A DNA stretch of 57,910 bases. Source: a virus. Its lineage: Duplodnaviria > Caudoviricetes. How positions within the stretch are numbered: position 1 is the stretch's first letter; each line of letters begins with the position of its first letter. Under the pieces are notes generated by a model. That model was not told the DNA's origin and searched no databases. It saw only the letters and a list, made by a program, of their open reading frames with translations. Made by a program: the position numbers and the translations under genes. Shown in pieces: positions 3,370 through 48,443 of the stretch. The stretch spans positions 1 to 57,910 of IMG/VR virus record IMGVR_UViG_3300037424_000402, one strand, 5' to 3'.

Positions 3370-4350
3370 ATGAGCAAGATCGCGTATCGAGAGAAGCGGT
3401 TCGGAGACTCTGCAATCGTGCTGATCGATGCGAGCAACGAGATCATCGAGGAGTACGGTCGTCAGAATCTCACTCTCACCCTCCGGCAGCTTTACTACCA
3501 GCACGTCACGCGGAACACGATCCCGAACACGGATCGGAGCTACAAGAGCCTCGGGGCCATCGTGTCTGACGCGCGCCTCGCCGGCCTCATCGATTGGGAC
3601 GCGATCGAGGATCGTGTGCGGCAGCCTCGCCGGGCGAACGAGTACGAGAGTCTCAAAGACCTGACCGACGCCGCGCTCCGCTCCTACCGTCTCCCGAGAT
3701 GGAAGGGGCAGGACACCTATGCCGAGCTTTGGGTCGAGAAGGATGCGCTCGCTGGCGTGCTCGAACCACTCGCCCGGAAGTTCCACGTCACGCTCATGGT
3801 GAACCGCGGTTACTCATCGCAGTCTGCGATGTTCGAGGCGTCACAGCGGTTCATCGCCGCGTGCGAGAGCGCGGGTGTCGGCGACGGACCCGAAGACGAG
3901 GATCAGCCGGCGGACATCGCGTATCGTGACGGCAACGCCGAGACCGGCGGACAGGAGATCGATCTCGTCAGGCGCCCGGTGCTCTTCTACCTCGGGGACC
4001 ACGACCCGTCGGGCGAAGACATGGTGCGCGATGTCCGCGATCGGCTCTCGATGTTCGGCATCGACGTGGACGTGCAGAAGATCGCGCTCACCATGGCACA
4101 GGTGAAGCGATACAACCCGCCGCCGAACCCGGCCAAGGTCACCGACTCGCGCGCCGCTGGCTACATCGCGAAGTTCGGCGACTCCTCGTGGGAGGTGGAC
4201 GCGCTGCCGCCGAACGTGCTGTCACAGATCGTCACGTCGAGCTTCCGGTCGATCATCGATCAGGAGAAGATGGACGAGATCATCGAGAAGGAAGAGAGCG
4301 ACAAGAAGAGGTTGACCGCAGCCGTCTCGAAGATCGTGAAGGAGGACTAG
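3370..4350 (+). CDS. Spo11/topoisomerase VI-A-like winged-helix + TOPRIM protein
   Basis: LTLRQLYY (helix with candidate catalytic Tyr), WVEKDA, RGYSS, LGDHDPSG (DxD), WEVDAL. Confidence 0.75.
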   Translation: MSKIAYREKRFGDSAIVLIDASNEIIEEYGRQNLTLTLRQLYYQHVTRNTIPNTDRSYKSLGAIVSDARLAGLIDWDAIEDRVRQPRRANEYESLKDLTDAALRSYRLPRWKGQDTYAELWVEKDALAGVLEPLARKFHVTLMVNRGYSSQSAMFEASQRFIAACESAGVGDGPEDEDQPADIAYRDGNAETGGQEIDLVRRPVLFYLGDHDPSGEDMVRDVRDRLSMFGIDVDVQKIALTMAQVKRYNPPPNPAKVTDSRAAGYIAKFGDSSWEVDALPPNVLSQIVTSSFRSIIDQEKMDEIIEKEESDKKRLTAAVSKIVKED

Positions 4351-4353
4351 TCC

Positions 4354-4554
4354 ATGACGGCGACTGAGCTTAAGCTCCTCCGCATGGCGGCGAGCGGATT
4401 GATTGTGACTGCGACCGTGGAGGAGAGTGCCGTGCGGCACTCTCTCATCGATCGCGGGTTCATCCGGTGGGAGCAGAAGACGATCGGGAACGCGACGGTG
4501 GGCCACGACGTGATCACACAGCGGGGGCGCGACGCGCTCTCATGGGAGGACTAG
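4354..4554 (+). CDS. Small winged-helix-like protein
   Basis: SLIDRGFI...ITQRGRDAL pattern; GGAGG RBS. Confidence 0.55.
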   Translation: MTATELKLLRMAASGLIVTATVEESAVRHSLIDRGFIRWEQKTIGNATVGHDVITQRGRDALSWED

Positions 4555-4557
4555 GCC

Positions 4558-4788
4558 ATGACGATCCTCGCAATCACGATCTTCTGCAACTGCGGGAAAT
4601 GCATCACGCACGAAGGCTGCACGCTCGGTGGCGAGATGATGTGCTTCGAGTGCGCCGCGAAGATCGCCCGGGATCTGATCTCCAAGCCGGGGATCAGCGA
4701 CGCCGAGAGGAAGACGGCGATCGAGATCCTCGCTGTCGCGGCTGGTAGCAGAGAGGCGACTCCGCCCGACCGTAGCAAGATGAACTAG
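4558..4788 (+). CDS. Small Cys-rich (Zn-finger-like) protein
   Basis: CNCGKC...CFEC; GGAGG RBS. Confidence 0.55.
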   Translation: MTILAITIFCNCGKCITHEGCTLGGEMMCFECAAKIARDLISKPGISDAERKTAIEILAVAAGSREATPPDRSKMN

Positions 4789-5010
4789 CCGAGTGGCATG
4801 GATAGATCCGCGCGTCTGAAGCGAGCCGAGCAGCCTGATAGACACGACGTCAGTGAGCGAGCCGCGTGCATGTAAGAGGAACCGAGACCCCTAAGCGAGC
4901 CGACAGCGCAAGAGAGATCCGTTCTGTCGGAGCGAGCCGTCAAAGAAGAGACAACCGACCCAACCAAGCGCGCCGTGCTACCAGAGACACCCAACCCGAA
5001 GGAGCGAGCC
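4783..5010 (+). ncRNA. Upstream dual-repeat guide-RNA array (TIGR-like), about 6 units
   Basis: AGCG(A/C)GCC at 4820, 4856, 4894, 4931, 4967, 5003 (degenerate copy at 4783), alternating with A(G/T)AGATCC-like repeats and unique 9-11 nt spacers. Confidence 0.85.
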
Positions 5011-5952
5011 ATGACCGAGAATACCGAGCCCAAGCGGACGAAGAAGCCGAAGCGCACGCAGGAAGAGATCGACGCACTGAAGGCGGCAGGCGTGGAGCGC
5101 ACGACCGATCAGGATCGGTTCGCGCTCCGGCGCAAGGTCCGCATCTTCTACGACTTGCAGCGGATGCGGATGCAGGTGGCGGGTCGCACGCAGAAGAAGG
5201 CGGACGGGGCCGAGATCCAGCTTCACCCCTACGACCTCGCCACGCTGGAGAAGCGCGCGCAGGATCTCCACGTCGCGGAGACTGCCGCGCTCGCCGATGT
5301 CGAGGAGCACCTCGGGAGCATGAGCTTCTACACCGAGGTGCTTCTGAAGAACCGGGAGAAGTGGCGGGGGCTCGGGCCGACCCTGGCCGGCGTCCTGCTC
5401 TCCGAGTTCGACGTGCGCATCGCGGACACCGTCTCGAAGTTCTGGGCGTTCGCCGGGCTGGCACCCGTGCCGGCGTGGCGGTGCCGCAAGTGCAACACCG
5501 TCGTCGAGGCGGAGCCGTCCCCGAGTGGAGTGACCGGGTTCTGGAATCACGGCAAGTCGGTGATCCCGTGCGAGTTCACCGAGAAGACGCTCGCCGATGG
5601 AAATCTCGTCTACACCAGCGGCAAGGCGATGAGGCCGACGAAGGGGGAGAAGCTGCCGTACAACTCGTTCCTCCGCACGAAGATCGTCGGCGTGCTCGCG
5701 CCGAACCTTCTCAAGCTGGGGAGCCCTTACCGGAAGAGCTACGACGACTTCAAGCACCGGTGGGAGTCGGCCGGGAAGGGGAAGAGCGATGCGCACCGTC
5801 ACCAGGCGGCGATGCGCTACATGGTGAAGACGCTCTTGGCAGACTTCTGGGAGGCGTGGCGGCGTCACGCGGGATTGCCGGTGCGCCCATCGTACGCAGA
5901 GGAGAAGCTGAACAAGCCACCTCACAGCGGAGCCGTCGCCGTCGGTTCATAG
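5011..5952 (+). CDS. TasA-like Nop/IS110-C-terminal-domain RNA-binding protein with no nuclease domain and a CxxC insertion
   Basis: Coiled coil, then RGLGPTLAGVLLSEFD, SKFWAFAGLAP, KGEKLPYNSFLRT, YRKSYDDFK, AHRHQAAMRYMVKTLLADFW; no DEDD RuvC or HNH motif; flanked by dual-repeat arrays; AAGGAG RBS before ATG 5011. Confidence 0.8.
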   Translation: MTENTEPKRTKKPKRTQEEIDALKAAGVERTTDQDRFALRRKVRIFYDLQRMRMQVAGRTQKKADGAEIQLHPYDLATLEKRAQDLHVAETAALADVEEHLGSMSFYTEVLLKNREKWRGLGPTLAGVLLSEFDVRIADTVSKFWAFAGLAPVPAWRCRKCNTVVEAEPSPSGVTGFWNHGKSVIPCEFTEKTLADGNLVYTSGKAMRPTKGEKLPYNSFLRTKIVGVLAPNLLKLGSPYRKSYDDFKHRWESAGKGKSDAHRHQAAMRYMVKTLLADFWEAWRRHAGLPVRPSYAEEKLNKPPHSGAVAVGS

Positions 5953-6526
5953 AGATCCGTGACTCACGAGCGAGCCGCGTCATATGAGACTCCCGTAGGA
6001 GTGAAGCGAGCCGATAGCCCCGAGAGATCCGGAACCATGGAGCGAGCCGAATGCGGTAAGAGATCCGTGGTTCGATAGCGAGCCGAAGGAGTAAAGAGAT
6101 CCGACCGTCACGAAGCGAGCCGCCTGTTGGGAGTGATCCGTAACAGAAAAGCGAGCCGAAATATGGAGGAGAGATCCGAAAGCCCGGAGCGAGCCGTATG
6201 AAACAAGAGCACCGTCCATCTGGAGCGAGCCGTCAAGGGAAAGAGATCCGTAACCGAATAGCGAGCCGCTGTGATCCAGGGGAATCCCCGAAGCCCACAA
6301 GCGTGCCGATGAGCCAAAGAGATCCGATCGGTTTGAGCGGGCCGTGTAGAGCAAGAGATCCGGAGCCCATGAAGCGAGCCGCCATAGGTAGACACCCGGA
6401 GGAGTAAAGCGTGCCGAAAGGTGAAAGAGAGATCCGATCTGCGGGAGCGAGCCGTATAGGGAGAGAGATCCGCTGTCATAGAAGCGAGCCGATGTGGACA
6501 AGAAATCCGTTCCTCTTGAGCGAGCC
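5951..6526 (+). ncRNA. Downstream dual-repeat guide-RNA array (TIGR-like), 16 units of about 36 nt
   Basis: AGCGAGCC (or single-base variants) at 5969, 6005, 6041, 6077, 6114, 6150, 6188, 6224, 6260, 6300, 6336, 6373, 6408, 6446, 6483, 6519, alternating with AGAGATCC-type repeats; each internal repeat is followed by G and a unique spacer of about 9 nt. Confidence 0.9.
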
Positions 6527-7555
6527 ATGAAGAAGACGAAGAAGACAGAAGCGATTGCGAAACGCCCGACTCAGCCGACCGCTATTGCCACGTCGGCTGA
6601 TGTCGAGCGGGTCAAGGCGGCCGTCGAGACGTACGTCAAGGCGGCGAAGGCAACGAACACGGTGAGCGCGTACGGAGACGCGCGGTTGCACTTCGAGGCG
6701 TGGTGTCTGCGCTTCAACCTCTCAGCGTGGCCGGCGACGCCCGAGACGATCGTGGCGTATCTCTCGGACTGCGCTGCCGATGGTTCGGCGTGGAACACGA
6801 TCGCGCTGCGCCGTGCCGCCATTGGGGTGCAGCATCGGCTCGCGCTCAACGTCAACCCGCCACCGACGTCCGACGTGCGAGTGCGCGAGGTGATGAAGGG
6901 CATCCGGAAGAAGTCAGCACCGCCTCGCCAGCGCGCACCACTCACCGTGGACATGCTTCCAATGGTGCTCGCTGGGATCTCGACGTGGCCGCTGATCGAG
7001 CGTGATCGCGCTCGGGCTATTCTTCTCCTAGGAGTTGCGACGGCTCTTCGCGGGGAGCAACTCGCAGCGTTGCGTACCCCCGACGTACACGAGTTCGACG
7101 AGGGCCTCTCGATCCGCATTCACCGCGAGAAAACCGATCAGCTTGGGAAGGGTCGATTCGTGCAGGTGCCGCGCATCGACGGGCCGCTCTGCCCCGTCGC
7201 CGCGTTCATGGAGTGGATGGCGGACATTCCATCGAATGCGCTCGGGCCGATCTTCCCGACGCTGCGGCGAGGGGGTCACGTCAGCACGCGAGCAATCACG
7301 CGGAAGGACGTCCACCGGATCGTGAAGGATGCTGTTGCGGCGGGTGGCTTCGATCCAGCCGACTTCGGTGCTCACTCGCTGCGCTCCGGGTTCGTCACCG
7401 CCGCGCGAGCCAGGGGGATGGATTGGGGAGAGATCATGCGGCAGACGGGACACAAGCGGATCGAGACAGCGATGAAGTACGAGCGCCCGGTGGAGGGTGA
7501 CGCGGCGACGTTCGAGCGACTCGCGACGATGTGGAAGCCCCCGGAGCCCAGATAG
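6527..7555 (+). CDS. Tyrosine recombinase/integrase (Cre/Xer-like)
   Basis: SAM-like N-domain; catalytic set ALRGEQ, EKTDQ, HSLRSG, TGH, AMKY. Confidence 0.92.
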   Translation: MKKTKKTEAIAKRPTQPTAIATSADVERVKAAVETYVKAAKATNTVSAYGDARLHFEAWCLRFNLSAWPATPETIVAYLSDCAADGSAWNTIALRRAAIGVQHRLALNVNPPPTSDVRVREVMKGIRKKSAPPRQRAPLTVDMLPMVLAGISTWPLIERDRARAILLLGVATALRGEQLAALRTPDVHEFDEGLSIRIHREKTDQLGKGRFVQVPRIDGPLCPVAAFMEWMADIPSNALGPIFPTLRRGGHVSTRAITRKDVHRIVKDAVAAGGFDPADFGAHSLRSGFVTAARARGMDWGEIMRQTGHKRIETAMKYERPVEGDAATFERLATMWKPPEPR

Positions 7556-7556
7556 C

Positions 7557-7582
7557 GGAAGGGCCCCGTTAGGGGCCCCTCC
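7557..7582 (-). terminator. GC-rich hairpin at the convergence of the + and - strand blocks
   Basis: On the - strand GGAGGGGCCCC-UAAC-GGGGCCCUUCC forms an 11-bp stem; no clear U-tract. Confidence 0.6.
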
Positions 7583-7626
7583 TGGGATGACGCAGCGAGC
7601 CCGAGGCGGGCGCACCCATCGAGGTG

Positions 7627-7655
7627 ATTCTAGGGGCGAGGGGCCGGTCCGTCAA
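7627..7655 (-). promoter_or_regulatory. Sigma70-type promoter firing toward the recombinase 3' end
   Basis: TTGACG-17 nt-TAGAAT on the - strand. Confidence 0.75.
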
Positions 7656-7864
7656 GGCTTCGTACGTCGGCCTTGGTCGGTTGGCACGAAAGATCAACGA
7701 GCCGGGCGAGGTGATCGACCTCGTCTGAGAGGCTCTCGATCTTGGCCCCTTGCTGCACGACCACGTAGGTCACGAGCCCCGTGTAGGCTGCGAAAAGCGC
7801 GACGGCCAGGGCCGTCGGCAGCCCGTAGCGCTTCAGGAGGTCTCGGTCGATGCCAGCCGGGCAT
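7630..7864 (-). pseudogene. TM + coiled-coil (holin-like) gene, out of frame by +1 right after the ATG
   Basis: GGAG RBS, ATG CCC G, then +1 frame AGIDRDLLKRYGLPTALAVALFAAYTGLVTYVVVQQGAKIESL...*; span 235 nt = 3n+1. Confidence 0.55.
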
Positions 7865-7891
7865 GGTCGCTCCGTTGCGAAGCCTGGGCGC

Positions 7892-8296
7892 CTAGCGCCG
7901 AGCCCTGGCGAGGGTGTAACCGCCCACCGCCGCGAGGATGAGCACGGCGAAGCCGGCGCCGACGACCCACCCCCACTGACTCGTTCCGGGATTCCCGTAC
8001 GGCGCGAACGCCAGATCCTTGCCCCACCCCTTCTTCATCACGAGCGTGACCTTCGGCCGCAGGAGCCGGCCGGCGTCGAACCCCTGGCCAGCGATCACCG
8101 CAGCATCGCCCCCCTTGCCGGCTGCGGCCGAGCCGCCGGCCTTCGAGCCCGAGGAGAAGGGGGAGGGGATGTAGATCGGTGGGCCCCACGTCGACTCGAC
8201 GCGCACCGCTGCGACTGCGTTATTGAGCATCGAGAGGCCGAGCGACTCGAAGTCGAGATCGGAGAAGGCGAGCGCGGCGCGGTTCGGTCTCTTCAT
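7892..8296 (-). CDS. Putative virion membrane protein with C-terminal TM
   Basis: WGWVVGAGFAVLILAAVGG followed by a basic tail. Confidence 0.7.
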   Translation of the reverse strand: MKRPNRAALAFSDLDFESLGLSMLNNAVAAVRVESTWGPPIYIPSPFSSGSKAGGSAAAGKGGDAAVIAGQGFDAGRLLRPKVTLVMKKGWGKDLAFAPYGNPGTSQWGWVVGAGFAVLILAAVGGYTLARARR

Positions 8297-45372: not shown

Positions 45373-45753
45373 ATGTTTGAGATCGTTTTGGCGGTATTCA
45401 GTAACGTCCGAGCGGTGGCAATTCCAGTTGCCATCTTTCTCACGATTGGTCTCACTCTGACGTTCGTGGCGCAAGCGTGGGCGCACGACTTTTTCAACGA
45501 CAAGGACGAAGAGTCGTTGAATGCTCGGATGCCGAAGATCAGATCGAAGCTGATCGCCTGGATCATCGTATCGGCGGTTGTAACCTGCGTTCCAACCATC
45601 GACGATCTATGGAAAGTCAGGATCGGTCTGATCAAGTATCAGCTTGCCTCGTCGGAGAATGTCCAGACGGGCGTCGATACCATCGAGCGCATCGGGAAGA
45701 AGCTGGAGTGCAAGTATCTCGGCGGATGCGACGAGAAGAAGCCGGAGCGATGA
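45373..45753 (+). CDS. Two-TM membrane protein
   Basis: GGAGG RBS; two hydrophobic helices; lower GC. Confidence 0.65.
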   Translation: MFEIVLAVFSNVRAVAIPVAIFLTIGLTLTFVAQAWAHDFFNDKDEESLNARMPKIRSKLIAWIIVSAVVTCVPTIDDLWKVRIGLIKYQLASSENVQTGVDTIERIGKKLECKYLGGCDEKKPER

Positions 45754-48443
45754 GCTACGATCCCAGAGAATTCGGTGCATTGTGTAGTAGGTGCCCGCTC
45801 GCCGGGATGGAGATCGTTCCTCCGGAGGAGGCGCGCAGCGGATATCCGTTTGCGATCCTCGTGGGGGAGATCCCAGGCGCGGAGGAGGCGAAGCAGGGCC
45901 GCCCCTTCGTCGGCCCCTCGGGCTGGGAGATGAATCGCGCGCTACAGGCAGTTGGGATCCGCCGGAACCGCTGCCACGTCACCAATGCCGTGCTCTGCCA
46001 TCCACCCGGCGCCGCCTCGGGCGCGCTCGACCGGATCGACAAGCAAGTCGCGACGCGCCGGAAGAACGGCGACACGGAAGTCCTGACGCCCGTGGAGGCG
46101 TGTCGTCCGAGGCTCCTGCGGGAGATCGAGGGGCTGGGCTGCAAGGATGTCGTGCCCCTCGGTGGCGTGGCGATGCGCGCGATCACCGGGATGCGCTCGA
46201 AGATCCTCGAAGTGCGCGGCGGTCCGCAGAACGTGGATGTGCCAGTCGAGGATGAGCGGAGAGTGGTGCTACGGATGCTGCCCACTGTCCATCCGGCGTT
46301 CGTGATGCGCTCGCGCCGCTGGACCGGCGCCTTCGTGGCCGACCTCGGCCGGGCGATGCGCTGGTTCACCTCGGGGCTGCGCTGGCAGGATCCGGTGACG
46401 CTCTTCCGACCGAGCCCGGTGCAGCTTCGCGCCTGGATCGCTAGGGCTTCACGGGCCGTGATCTACGACGTCGAGACTGCGCCCGCCTTCCCCTCGCCGA
46501 AGGCTTCGGAATGCCGCTACGATCCGATGCGCGATCCGCTGCGCGTCGTCGGACTTTGCAACGAAGATGCCCGCTCGGCCACGGTGATACCGTTTCGATC
46601 GAAGGAAGATGTAGGCCGATCATTCTACACGCTCAATGAGTATCGCGAGTTGATCGACATCCTGCGCGCCTTCTTCGTTTCGAGCAAGATCAAAGTCGGG
46701 TGGAACTCCGGGTATTACGATCGGATGGTGATCGAGTCGCATTTCAAGGTGACTCCAGCACCGCACATCGATCTGATCGGTCTCCATAAGTTCGTCGAGC
46801 CGGAGCTTCCTCACTCGCTCGGCTACGCAGGATCGATCTACACCGACGTCAACGCCTGGAAGCAGGGTCGCCCGGCAGAATCGTCGGAGACCGATCAGGA
46901 TCTTTGGACGTACAACGCGAAGGATACTGCCGTCACTGCGATGTCGATGGGGCCGATCGTTCAGGCAGTCAAGGATCGGAAGCAGGAGAAGCCCGCCGCG
47001 TTCTGGCCGTTCGTTCAGGATCTATGCGTGCAGCTTCATCGTAACGGCATGCACGTCGATCAGGTGAAGCGACAGGAGTGGGACGCGAAGATGCTCCGGC
47101 TCGCGCAGGAGCACCTGCGAGTGATCCGCGACGCCTCGGGCAAGCCTCGGATGAACCCGGGATCGTTCCCCCAGGTGGGTGGGCTCCTCTTCGATGATTG
47201 GGAGTTGCTCCCCGTGAATTACACGGAGGGTGGTGAGCCCTCGACGGACGATGAGTCGCTGCGCGAGATCATGGCGAAGCAAACGCTCACCCCAGCCCAG
47301 CGCACCACCATCGAGAATGTGCGGCTCTACCGGCGCCGCTGCAAGTACCGGGGGACGTACACGCAGAAGCTCCGCCCGATGAACGAGCCGCCTGTCGCCG
47401 AGGCGTTCAGCTTCGATGAGGAGGCAGAGGAAGAGGACAAGGTGCTCGATCGGCTGAAGAGGGGCCGCCCGAAGTCCGGTGTGATCCTCGCCGACGGGCG
47501 CGTCCACGGCGACTGGAACGCGCACGGCACGCTCGGCTGGCGCATCTCGTCTTCCGCGCCGAACCTTCAGAACTACCCCAACCTCCTGCGCGACATGATC
47601 GATGCCGCGCCCGGGTGGTGCCTCGTCGGCTGCGATCAGGCGCAGCTTGAACTCCGAATGGTCGCGGCGATGGCTGGGGCTCGCGCGTATCTCGCCGCGT
47701 TCGCGTCCGGCGGAGATCCGCACGGCGAGCTTTGCGTTGCCACCTTCGGCTCGGTGTATGAGAACGCTGCGAAGGATCCGAAGAAGCTCTTCCGCCGGTT
47801 CGTGAAGGAAGGGACGTACGCCAGCGTCTATCAGGCGGAGATCGAGACCGTTCACGGTGTGCTCGCCTCCGCCGAAGATCAGGAGACCGAGCGGCTCGTG
47901 TTCCCCGACATCTCGATCTCGAAGGTTGCCGCCTTCCACCGGGTGTTCACCGAGCGCAACCCGGAGATCCCGATCTGGTGGGAGACCCTGGACAAGGAGT
48001 TCAGCGAGAAGGGTTATCTCACCGAGGATGTGCTCGGATTACGCTGTGACTTCCTCGACGGTGCGAAGGATCCGCAGTTGGGGAACAAGATGTCGAACTT
48101 CAAAGCGCAGTCCGGTGGATCCGCGATCGTCCACATCGCGACGAAGCGCTTCGTGGAGAACATGCCAAAGGATTGGCACGGGCGCGTGCTGATCGTGAAC
48201 CAGGGTCACGACTCGCTCACCTGCGAGGTGAAGGCAGATCATCCTGGCCCGCAGGTTTTGATCCGCAACGAGAAGGGTGAGATCAAAGAGCGTCGCTGGT
48301 GTGCAGATCCCAACTGTGGATGTCTGCCGAGCAAGGTGGGACGCTTCCTCGAAGAGTGTTTTACCATTGACGGCAACGCCTACGGTCTGCCGGTTCCATT
48401 CTTGGGGGAGATGCAGATCGGCAACACTTGGAAGGAGACGTAA
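45750..48443 (+). CDS. polA: Family A DNA polymerase with N-terminal family-4 uracil-DNA-glycosylase domain (SPO1-type architecture)
   Basis: UDG: CSRCPL, VGEIPG.EE..GRPFVGPSG, TNAVLC, HPAF; exonuclease: YDVET, YNAKD; polymerase: PNLQN, DQAQLELR, KEGTYASVY, HDS. Confidence 0.93.
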   Translation: MSYDPREFGALCSRCPLAGMEIVPPEEARSGYPFAILVGEIPGAEEAKQGRPFVGPSGWEMNRALQAVGIRRNRCHVTNAVLCHPPGAASGALDRIDKQVATRRKNGDTEVLTPVEACRPRLLREIEGLGCKDVVPLGGVAMRAITGMRSKILEVRGGPQNVDVPVEDERRVVLRMLPTVHPAFVMRSRRWTGAFVADLGRAMRWFTSGLRWQDPVTLFRPSPVQLRAWIARASRAVIYDVETAPAFPSPKASECRYDPMRDPLRVVGLCNEDARSATVIPFRSKEDVGRSFYTLNEYRELIDILRAFFVSSKIKVGWNSGYYDRMVIESHFKVTPAPHIDLIGLHKFVEPELPHSLGYAGSIYTDVNAWKQGRPAESSETDQDLWTYNAKDTAVTAMSMGPIVQAVKDRKQEKPAAFWPFVQDLCVQLHRNGMHVDQVKRQEWDAKMLRLAQEHLRVIRDASGKPRMNPGSFPQVGGLLFDDWELLPVNYTEGGEPSTDDESLREIMAKQTLTPAQRTTIENVRLYRRRCKYRGTYTQKLRPMNEPPVAEAFSFDEEAEEEDKVLDRLKRGRPKSGVILADGRVHGDWNAHGTLGWRISSSAPNLQNYPNLLRDMIDAAPGWCLVGCDQAQLELRMVAAMAGARAYLAAFASGGDPHGELCVATFGSVYENAAKDPKKLFRRFVKEGTYASVYQAEIETVHGVLASAEDQETERLVFPDISISKVAAFHRVFTERNPEIPIWWETLDKEFSEKGYLTEDVLGLRCDFLDGAKDPQLGNKMSNFKAQSGGSAIVHIATKRFVENMPKDWHGRVLIVNQGHDSLTCEVKADHPGPQVLIRNEKGEIKERRWCADPNCGCLPSKVGRFLEECFTIDGNAYGLPVPFLGEMQIGNTWKET

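Follow-up and report, generated by a model that had tools for sequence, protein, structure and literature searches.

A TIGR-TasA guide array that runs into the start codon of an exchangeable tyrosine recombinase gene

Why should an array of guide-RNA repeats stop exactly at the start codon of a recombinase gene? This question is raised by a tandem interspersed guide RNA (TIGR) locus at positions 4802-7601 of the IMG/VR virus record IMGVR_UViG_3300037424_000402 (Duplodnaviria; Caudoviricetes), whose 57,910 nucleotides (nt) we refer to as the window. Here tasA, the gene for a TIGR-associated (Tas) protein, and a gene for a tyrosine recombinase follow each other on the + strand, each directly behind an array. 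A sequence-only reading of this DNA had seen in it a candidate RNA-guided recombination module, with the recombinase as the effector recruited by the guide complex, as the enzyme that builds or shuffles the array, or simply as a gene controlled by array processing. We find that the TIGR-TasA system itself is of a known kind, and that what is new is the array running into an exchangeable recombinase gene and the retention of their junction despite the exchange. The interpretation that we favour, with a probability of roughly 0.55, is that the TasA guide system is co-transcribed with, and probably post-transcriptionally coupled to, a recombinase that is self-sufficient and exchangeable.

The locus is a genuine, well-formed dual-repeat TIGR-TasA system. 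Parsing of 4802-7601 resolved an edge repeat (AGCGAGCCG) and a loop repeat (AGAGATCCG), separated by spacers of ~9 nt and recurring with a period of ~36 nt. The upstream array (4802-5010, + strand) opens with a loop-like repeat (TAGATCCG) and comprises five full units, its edge repeats starting at 4820, 4856, 4894, 4931, 4967 and 5003, while the downstream array (5951-6526, + strand) consists of a first loop repeat followed by 16 edge repeats (5969 to 6519) that delimit 15 full units. Unit length ranges from 35 to 40 nt, and 11 of the 20 units measure exactly 36 nt. Of the exact word AGCGAGCC, the + strand carries 19 copies in the whole window, 18 of which fall in 4780-6530, and an exact word count found no copy on the - strand. 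Edge and loop repeats share their ends, both reading AG.....CCG with a box-D-like start and a box-C-like end; the repeat-end motif given in the available text of Faure et al. (2025; PMC12045711) is UG...CCA, which is said there to covary between both repeats. Complementarity between spacers A and B of a unit was not above shuffled pairing, and no Rfam family matched within 4000-8000.

Both arrays end in the same way. The word AGCGAGCC lies at 5003-5010, as a 3'-truncated edge repeat directly 5' of the tasA ATG (5011), and again at 6519-6526 directly 5' of the recombinase ATG (6527), confirming the earlier observation that each array closes with a repeat-ATG junction of zero spacing. The sequence-only reading was also right that the tasA stop codon (TAG, 5950-5952) overlaps the first downstream repeat (the loop repeat AGAGATCCG, 5951-5959). 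The last upstream spacer and the edge repeat together form AAGGAG, 6 nt before the tasA ATG, and the recombinase gene is without a good Shine-Dalgarno sequence, whereas 37 of the 79 open reading frames (ORFs) of the window, picked by a third-codon-position G+C (GC3) heuristic, have one. A promoter and terminator scan predicted nothing between the downstream array and the recombinase gene. On the other flank, 1 nt past the recombinase stop and between convergent gene blocks, we found a G+C-rich hairpin (7557-7582; 11-nt arms, 4-nt loop) that is likely a terminator or an RNA 3' stabiliser. Beyond this hairpin, 39 nt past the recombinase stop, stands an orphan exact edge repeat (AGCGAGCC, 7594-7601, + strand), the 19th copy of the window, and the recombinase ORF is thus bracketed by edge repeats at 6519-6526 and 7594-7601.

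The evidence that the recombinase is exchangeable comes from the nearest relative of the locus, the 4.1-kb metagenome contig L043, whose flanks are 90-97% identical to the window at the nucleotide level and whose TasA is 88% identical. L043 has the same layout (upstream array, tasA, downstream array, recombinase gene), both of its arrays end AGCGAGCC-ATG, and the hairpin at 7557-7582 is conserved in it, as is, without any change, the orphan edge repeat at 7594-7601. Its recombinase, in contrast, shares only 63 of 192 aligned residues (33%) with that of the window, the N-terminal halves cannot be aligned, and the two enzymes differ in type, being XerC/D-like in L043 and Cre-like in the window. 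Nucleotide identity stops at ~6345, inside the array, and resumes at 7533, ~20 nt before the recombinase stop, such that both ORFs end in KPPEPR and the swapped segment comprises the recombinase gene plus the last ~5 guide units. Because TasA is conserved at 88% and the recombinase at 33%, we regard the latter as an exchangeable cassette without a history of co-evolution with TasA. The zero-spacing junction between array and recombinase gene is kept across this exchange. Turnover is also evident in the arrays, as only five units (with up to 3 differences) are common to the 20 of the window and the 27 of L043; the unit before tasA is one of them, and it provides AGGAG 5' of the tasA ATG.

Both forms of the locus recur in other assemblies. 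A contig from run X2 of a second sample covers the stretch 5311-7399, from the array to the recombinase gene, with 0 differences, and the contiguity of array and recombinase gene is therefore not an artefact of a single assembly. The L043 form is also present on contigs from two further sediment runs, and relatives of its recombinase were found at three distant loci. In addition, a low-depth 151-nt contig of run X4 matches window positions 6525-6669, the start of the window-type recombinase gene, with a 6-nt insertion, and the same run holds an L043-type 3' end; window-type and L043-type cassettes may coexist in this one sediment sample.

The two proteins of the locus can each be assigned to a known family. 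TasA (tasA, 5011-5952, + strand) is a Nop-domain TIGR-associated protein of 313 residues, assigned through NCBIfam, the PDB and its fold. It matches the NCBIfam model NF052498 (TIGR_Tas) with 110.4 bits (cut-off 100) over residues 40-284, and sequence searches of the PDB returned TasH (E = 1e-9) and TasR (9mty, E = 1.7e-9). The AlphaFold2 model built with 44 relatives (predicted local distance difference test score, pLDDT, 89.1) consists of helices apart from one small beta insertion, its N-terminal 104 residues being modelled as helices. When this model was used with Foldseek, all of the top ten hits were TasH or TasR chains (E = 2e-8 to 2e-6), with IS621 bridge-RNA recombinases next, and weak matches of TasA to IS110 families were also seen in Pfam and NCBIfam. 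No HNH or RuvC domain was detected in TasA by Pfam, which yields only sub-threshold matches to zf-BED and Transposase_20, and a protein of only 313 residues in which the Tas model spans 40-284 leaves no room for a nuclease domain; the earlier description of a Tas-like protein without RuvC or HNH is borne out by both the Pfam scan and this length.

The beta insertion of TasA (residues 153-190, window positions 5470-5580) carries the nearly invariant R157, C158, C161 and H180, and the sub-threshold zf-BED match falls there. This Cys/His insertion (C158, C161, H180) is probably a zinc ribbon, a feature that we did not see noted for TasA in the available parts of the published descriptions. A single-protein search of viral contigs with TasA gave no match, and only one distant Tas match emerged among genomes of 185,579 species (one genome each). 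In cultured phages, only distant relatives were found, in phiRSL1, Microcystis phages and Salicola CGphi29.

The recombinase (6527-7555, + strand; 342 residues) is a Cre-like enzyme that scores 39.4 bits against PF00589 (cut-off 27.1), and the R-K-HxxR-H-Y set which the sequence-only reading had pointed out was confirmed by an alignment of 26 relatives, in which R175, K202, H283, R286, H309 and Y318 are invariant. Its family profile matches P1 Cre with E = 1.3e-33 (profile 28-313, Cre 34-332) and XerD with E = 1.1e-18. It is the sole PF00589 match of the genome, which encodes no serine recombinase (no PF00239 match). Its closest relatives (P0121-P0124) are 47-63% identical, and a single-protein search of viral contigs gave no match. 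We found no lox-like site (12-15-nt inverted arms, 5-9-nt spacer) near the recombinase gene, the three candidates of the window (26244, 51305 and 52642) all lying away from it. Likewise, no tRNA or tRNA fragment was found by a tRNA scan and an attachment-site search, no integration joints appeared in the contigs from the sample runs that match the window, and family matches revealed no xis-like protein among the window neighbours.

How could guide arrays and two protein-coding genes share such junctions? On the interpretation that we favour, 4802-7601 would be read as one transcript from upstream, with tasA and the recombinase gene embedded in the array. In the available text of Faure et al. 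(PMC12045711), both ends of the guide RNAs (tigRNAs) fall in the middle of edge repeats, and Tas is required for their processing without cutting itself, a host RNase being suspected. TasA dimers would here load 36-nt tigRNAs cut inside edge repeats, and the TasA-tigRNA complex would act as an RNA-guided DNA binder or repressor directed at foreign or host DNA, in line with published findings on other TasA proteins (TasA is described as a guide-dependent transcriptional repressor in the accessible part of the preprint 10.64898/2026.09.09.750476). Cuts in the terminal edge repeats would leave the tasA and recombinase messages with leaders of a few nt: in the tasA message, the cut would remove the AAGGAG given by the last spacer and the repeat, and cuts in the edge repeats on both sides would set free the recombinase message together with its 3' hairpin. 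Alternatively, TasA sitting on the terminal edge repeats might mask the start sites. By either route, TasA would exert feedback on its own production and control the output of the recombinase. For an RNA-binding protein, autoregulation by way of a binding site in the leader of its own message has a known precedent in L7Ae. The recombinase itself would be self-sufficient, finding its site via its own two domains and serving in integration, genome cyclisation or dimer resolution as with P1 Cre; it would be an exchangeable cassette beside the TIGR locus, like the integrases in other TIGR-bearing temperate phages. Among the three options offered by the sequence-only reading, a gene controlled by array processing fits the conserved repeat-ATG junction best.

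The junction may also be devoid of regulatory meaning. TIGR-TasA and the recombinase could be plain neighbours in an accessory region, their junction having been kept by descent and by a crossover within the array, an account that we consider somewhat unlikely. What surrounds Tas relatives elsewhere speaks for it: Pfam scans of their neighbours (59 ORFs of 11 viral loci and 72 ORFs of at least 170 residues of 24 metagenome loci) returned a wide variety that includes portal, Hen1, amidase, gp32 and terminase proteins, with a recombinase only in L005, L043 and L084, and recombinases were swapped beside a constant tas in two lineages, that of the window and L043 and that of L083 and L084. Neighbours without further meaning explain less well that an identical zero-spacing junction serves two unrelated recombinase N-termini, that the recombinase gene is without a good Shine-Dalgarno sequence of its own, and that a further edge repeat brackets its ORF. 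The junction at tas was present at five of the 25 loci examined (window, L043, L053, L083 and L084). Several points nevertheless weigh against post-transcriptional coupling. Among the matches listed in viral contigs, only 2 of 135 distinct same-repeat arrays end directly at the ATG of an ORF of at least 60 residues. The repeat-ATG junction is thus no general feature of TIGR arrays and may be peculiar to this lineage; the count also favours mere adjacency. The junction could, moreover, persist merely from a crossover inside the array during the swap, scans for tRNAs, hairpins and inverted repeats revealed no lox-like or attP site near the recombinase gene, and recombinases lie closer to TIGR loci than expected (see below), which leaves room for a functional Tas-integrase link.

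The generality of the link was assessed in a survey of TIGR-bearing viral records, made up of 41 records with Tas relatives and 49 records with same-repeat arrays (among the matches listed), 90 in total; the edge repeat AGCGAGCC recurs at 36-nt spacing in at least 147 stretches of IMG/VR viral contigs (L178-L324), and a search for the edge-plus-loop pattern gave only five single matches. Any tyrosine recombinase (PF00589) is encoded in 8 of the 41 Tas-relative records and in 10 of the 49 array records, that is in 18 of 90, and thus TIGR systems do not need a recombinase. A PF00589 protein encoded head-to-tail after the array was found in none of the 41 Tas-relative records, three of which have one within 3.2 kb on the opposite strand. 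Conversely, none of 80 viral loci with recombinase relatives (32-41% identical; the closer P0121-P0124 are not among these loci) has a Tas gene or a 36-nt array within 4 kb. In eight of the 18 records that hold a recombinase, its distance from the TIGR locus is at most 3.5 kb, compared to 3.9 records expected under uniform placement (P = 0.016, or P = 0.055 with two related records counted once). In temperate phages, accessory and defence genes cluster beside the integration cassette, and the proximity of TIGR loci to integrases would be as expected if TIGR cassettes settle in the accessory region next to the integration module.

Same-direction arrangements of tas, array and integrase gene, with or without a xis-like gene, occur in two further lineages. 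In L083 and L084, whose Tas is ~30% identical to TasA of the window, the upstream array ends AGTGAACC-ATG at tas, and a small ORF and an integrase gene follow; identity between the two integrases is only 27%. In the complete 96-kb phage L328, ~23 edge repeats, a region of ~100 nt, an HTH_17 excisionase-like gene and the integrase gene come after tas in this order, and this integration module, which comes only after the ~100-nt region and its own xis-like gene, again points to simple adjacency.

These data bear directly on the possibility that TasA lends RNA-guided help to recombination, which we hold to be improbable. The idea has a published root, since one sentence in the Discussion of Faure et al., in the part available, speculates that TasA might serve as an RNA-guided aid to phage integrases, and a target-DNA bend of ~180 degrees is mentioned there as well (PMC12045711). 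The contiguity of array and recombinase gene conserved in L043, the one-direction order in L083/L084 and L328 and the proximity in 8 of 18 records versus 3.9 expected would all suit it. On the other hand, near-identical TasA proteins adjoin Cre-like and XerC/D-like recombinases with 33% identity, and since the adjoining enzymes differ in type, a co-evolved interface between TasA and the recombinase is unlikely. Both recombinase types carry their own core-binding domains, and the survey left 72 of the 90 TIGR-bearing records without a tyrosine recombinase and the 80 recombinase loci without Tas or array.

The guides tell against RNA-guided help as well. When the 20 guides were searched in both tandem geometries with gaps of 0-2 nt, the phage genome itself gave no match with up to 1 mismatch, one with 2 and four with 3, where shuffled guides gave means of 0, 0.3 and 4.75, and guide-driven self-regulation of phage genes is therefore unlikely. 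In 1.4 Mb of retrieved loci there was one match with 1 mismatch and 17 with 2, compared to ~0.6 and ~16 expected, which is chance level by arithmetic estimate rather than by a shuffle control. The guide targets are likely rival elements or the host.

We conclude that the RNA-guided recombination module proposed from the sequence alone is not borne out, given the 88% versus 33% identity of TasA and recombinase in L043, the 72 of 90 records without a tyrosine recombinase and the 0 of 80 recombinase loci with Tas or array. The accompanying test, whether Tas genes and this recombinase clade co-occur and co-evolve, came out negative, as only 18 of 90 records hold a recombinase and the slot in L043 is occupied by another type. 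As judged from these comparisons, the evidence counts against a dedicated Tas-recombinase partnership. Quite improbable, too, is a two-protein system in which TasA-tigRNA marks and sharply bends chosen DNA sites so that a Cre- or Xer-type enzyme integrates or rearranges there, the enzyme being encoded by a cassette plugged into the array and its message cut out by guide processing.

The remaining option of the sequence-only reading was that the tyrosine recombinase builds or shuffles the array. It would then insert, delete or shuffle TIGR units as the missing adaptation enzyme, for which we see extremely little likelihood. Faure et al. report, in the text available, no adaptation protein with TIGR arrays (PMC12045711), and the fast turnover of units (5 of the 20 shared with L043 despite 88% TasA identity) and the passage of the last ~5 units along with the recombinase gene during the swap could be read in this sense. 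Most TIGR-bearing records are, however, without a tyrosine recombinase, the slot is filled by different recombinase types, and the arrays contain no inverted copy of the edge repeat, so that the usual core site with inverted arms is absent.

Several observations were made beside the locus and its relatives. The genome (57,910 bp, 64% G+C) has direct terminal repeats and encodes a family-A DNA polymerase, a primase-like protein, an SNF2 helicase, several methyltransferases and lysis and structural proteins; the TIGR locus forms the 3' end of a + strand gene block that meets the convergent - strand lysis and structural block at ~7.6 kb. Directly upstream of the locus (3370-4350) lies the gene for a 326-residue protein that matches PHROG 6247 (labelled DNA topoisomerase) with E = 4e-90 and has no Pfam family, and the DNA polymerase (45477-48443) combines a uracil-DNA-glycosylase-like domain (residues 127-281) and a family-A polymerase in one fused protein. 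The Tas protein of L328 can barely be aligned with TasA of the window (37 residues, 32% identity by BLASTP) despite the common edge repeat AGCGAGCC, and the edge repeat looks far better conserved than the Tas protein. Between the array end and the xis-like gene of L328 (2940-3030) are three TATACGAC-like words (CCATATACGAC, CCGTATACGAC and GGCGTATATTG), possible operator or arm-type sites of the integration module. In L329 (2250-2920, G072), a two-unit mini-array (edge repeats at 2545 and 2581) ends 6 nt before the ATG of a small ORF, again in a gene-leader position, and the stretch between the integrase gene and this mini-array presumably resembles, by eye, the 3' part of a tRNA. In L331 (4122-6288, G078), a 40-kb phage with terminal repeats, a terminase-nuclease-like ORF and the Tas gene are separated by a 17-repeat array (4862-5445), and a XerD-like recombinase is encoded 3.2 kb upstream.

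The locus offers a compact test object of 2.8 kb, in which one array encloses two ORFs and the repeat-ATG junction has survived an exchange of the recombinase. Two ideas can be put to the test with it: tigRNA processing may serve at the same time in mRNA maturation or autoregulation, and TasA may be of help to integrases. If guide-assisted recombination were true, it would constitute a natural two-protein RNA-guided recombination system with a pluggable recombinase cassette. The survey also provides a first figure for the placement of TIGR loci, beside the integrase in 8 of 18 integrase-bearing records, while the 72 of 90 records without an integrase argue against a general dependence of TIGR on a recombinase. 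Faure et al., in the available Discussion (PMC12045711), name as open questions what nuclease-less TasA does in nature, what TIGR guides target and how arrays grow. A literature search that included the 2026 TasA preprints found no described natural partnership between Tas and a tyrosine recombinase (the TIGRFinder neighbour tables, which may bear on its rarity, were not covered), in agreement with the sequence-only reading, the sole link being the Discussion sentence of Faure et al. as far as their text was available; their supplementary text does not mention integrase, recombinase or ParB.

Compared with known systems, the locus is closest to the dual-repeat TIGR-TasA loci of PMC12045711, with which, on the available text, it shares a solo-Nop Tas, alternating edge and loop repeats, ~9-nt spacers, a 36-nt period, arrays on both sides of tas, carriage by phages and the shared repeat ends (here AG...CCG) required for a symmetric dimer; it differs in that each of its arrays ends at a start codon, the second one at that of a recombinase gene. 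That paper, in the part available, finds TasA without clear protein associations except for ParB-like genes, and describes tasParB-tasA operons of conserved structure, in which arrays flank the genes on both sides and also lie between them. Such operons resemble the window in their interleaving of arrays with protein genes and in having the gene of a DNA-handling partner next to tasA, but the partner gene of the window encodes a tyrosine recombinase that is swapped between close relatives, whereas the ParB operon is reported as conserved. With P1 Cre/loxP the recombinase shares a full-length profile match (E = 1.3e-33), the complete catalytic set and an architecture of two domains that lacks an arm-binding domain, but no lox-like site was found near its gene. 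The IS110/IS621 bridge-RNA recombinases possess a Nop-like RNA-binding domain related to Tas and represent, in this protein lineage, the known example of RNA-guided recombination; in them, one protein joins the RNA-binding domain to a DEDD/serine recombinase, and a single bridge RNA sets both target and donor, whereas the window has a separate, exchangeable tyrosine recombinase and, as its RNA, a multi-guide array. Finally, the accessory clusters on the integration side of temperate phages show a similar arrangement, as 8 of 18 integrase-bearing records have the TIGR locus no more than 3.5 kb from the integrase gene and integrases are swapped while the neighbouring cassette stays, yet the zero-spacing fusion of an array to the start codon of a recombinase gene falls outside that general pattern.

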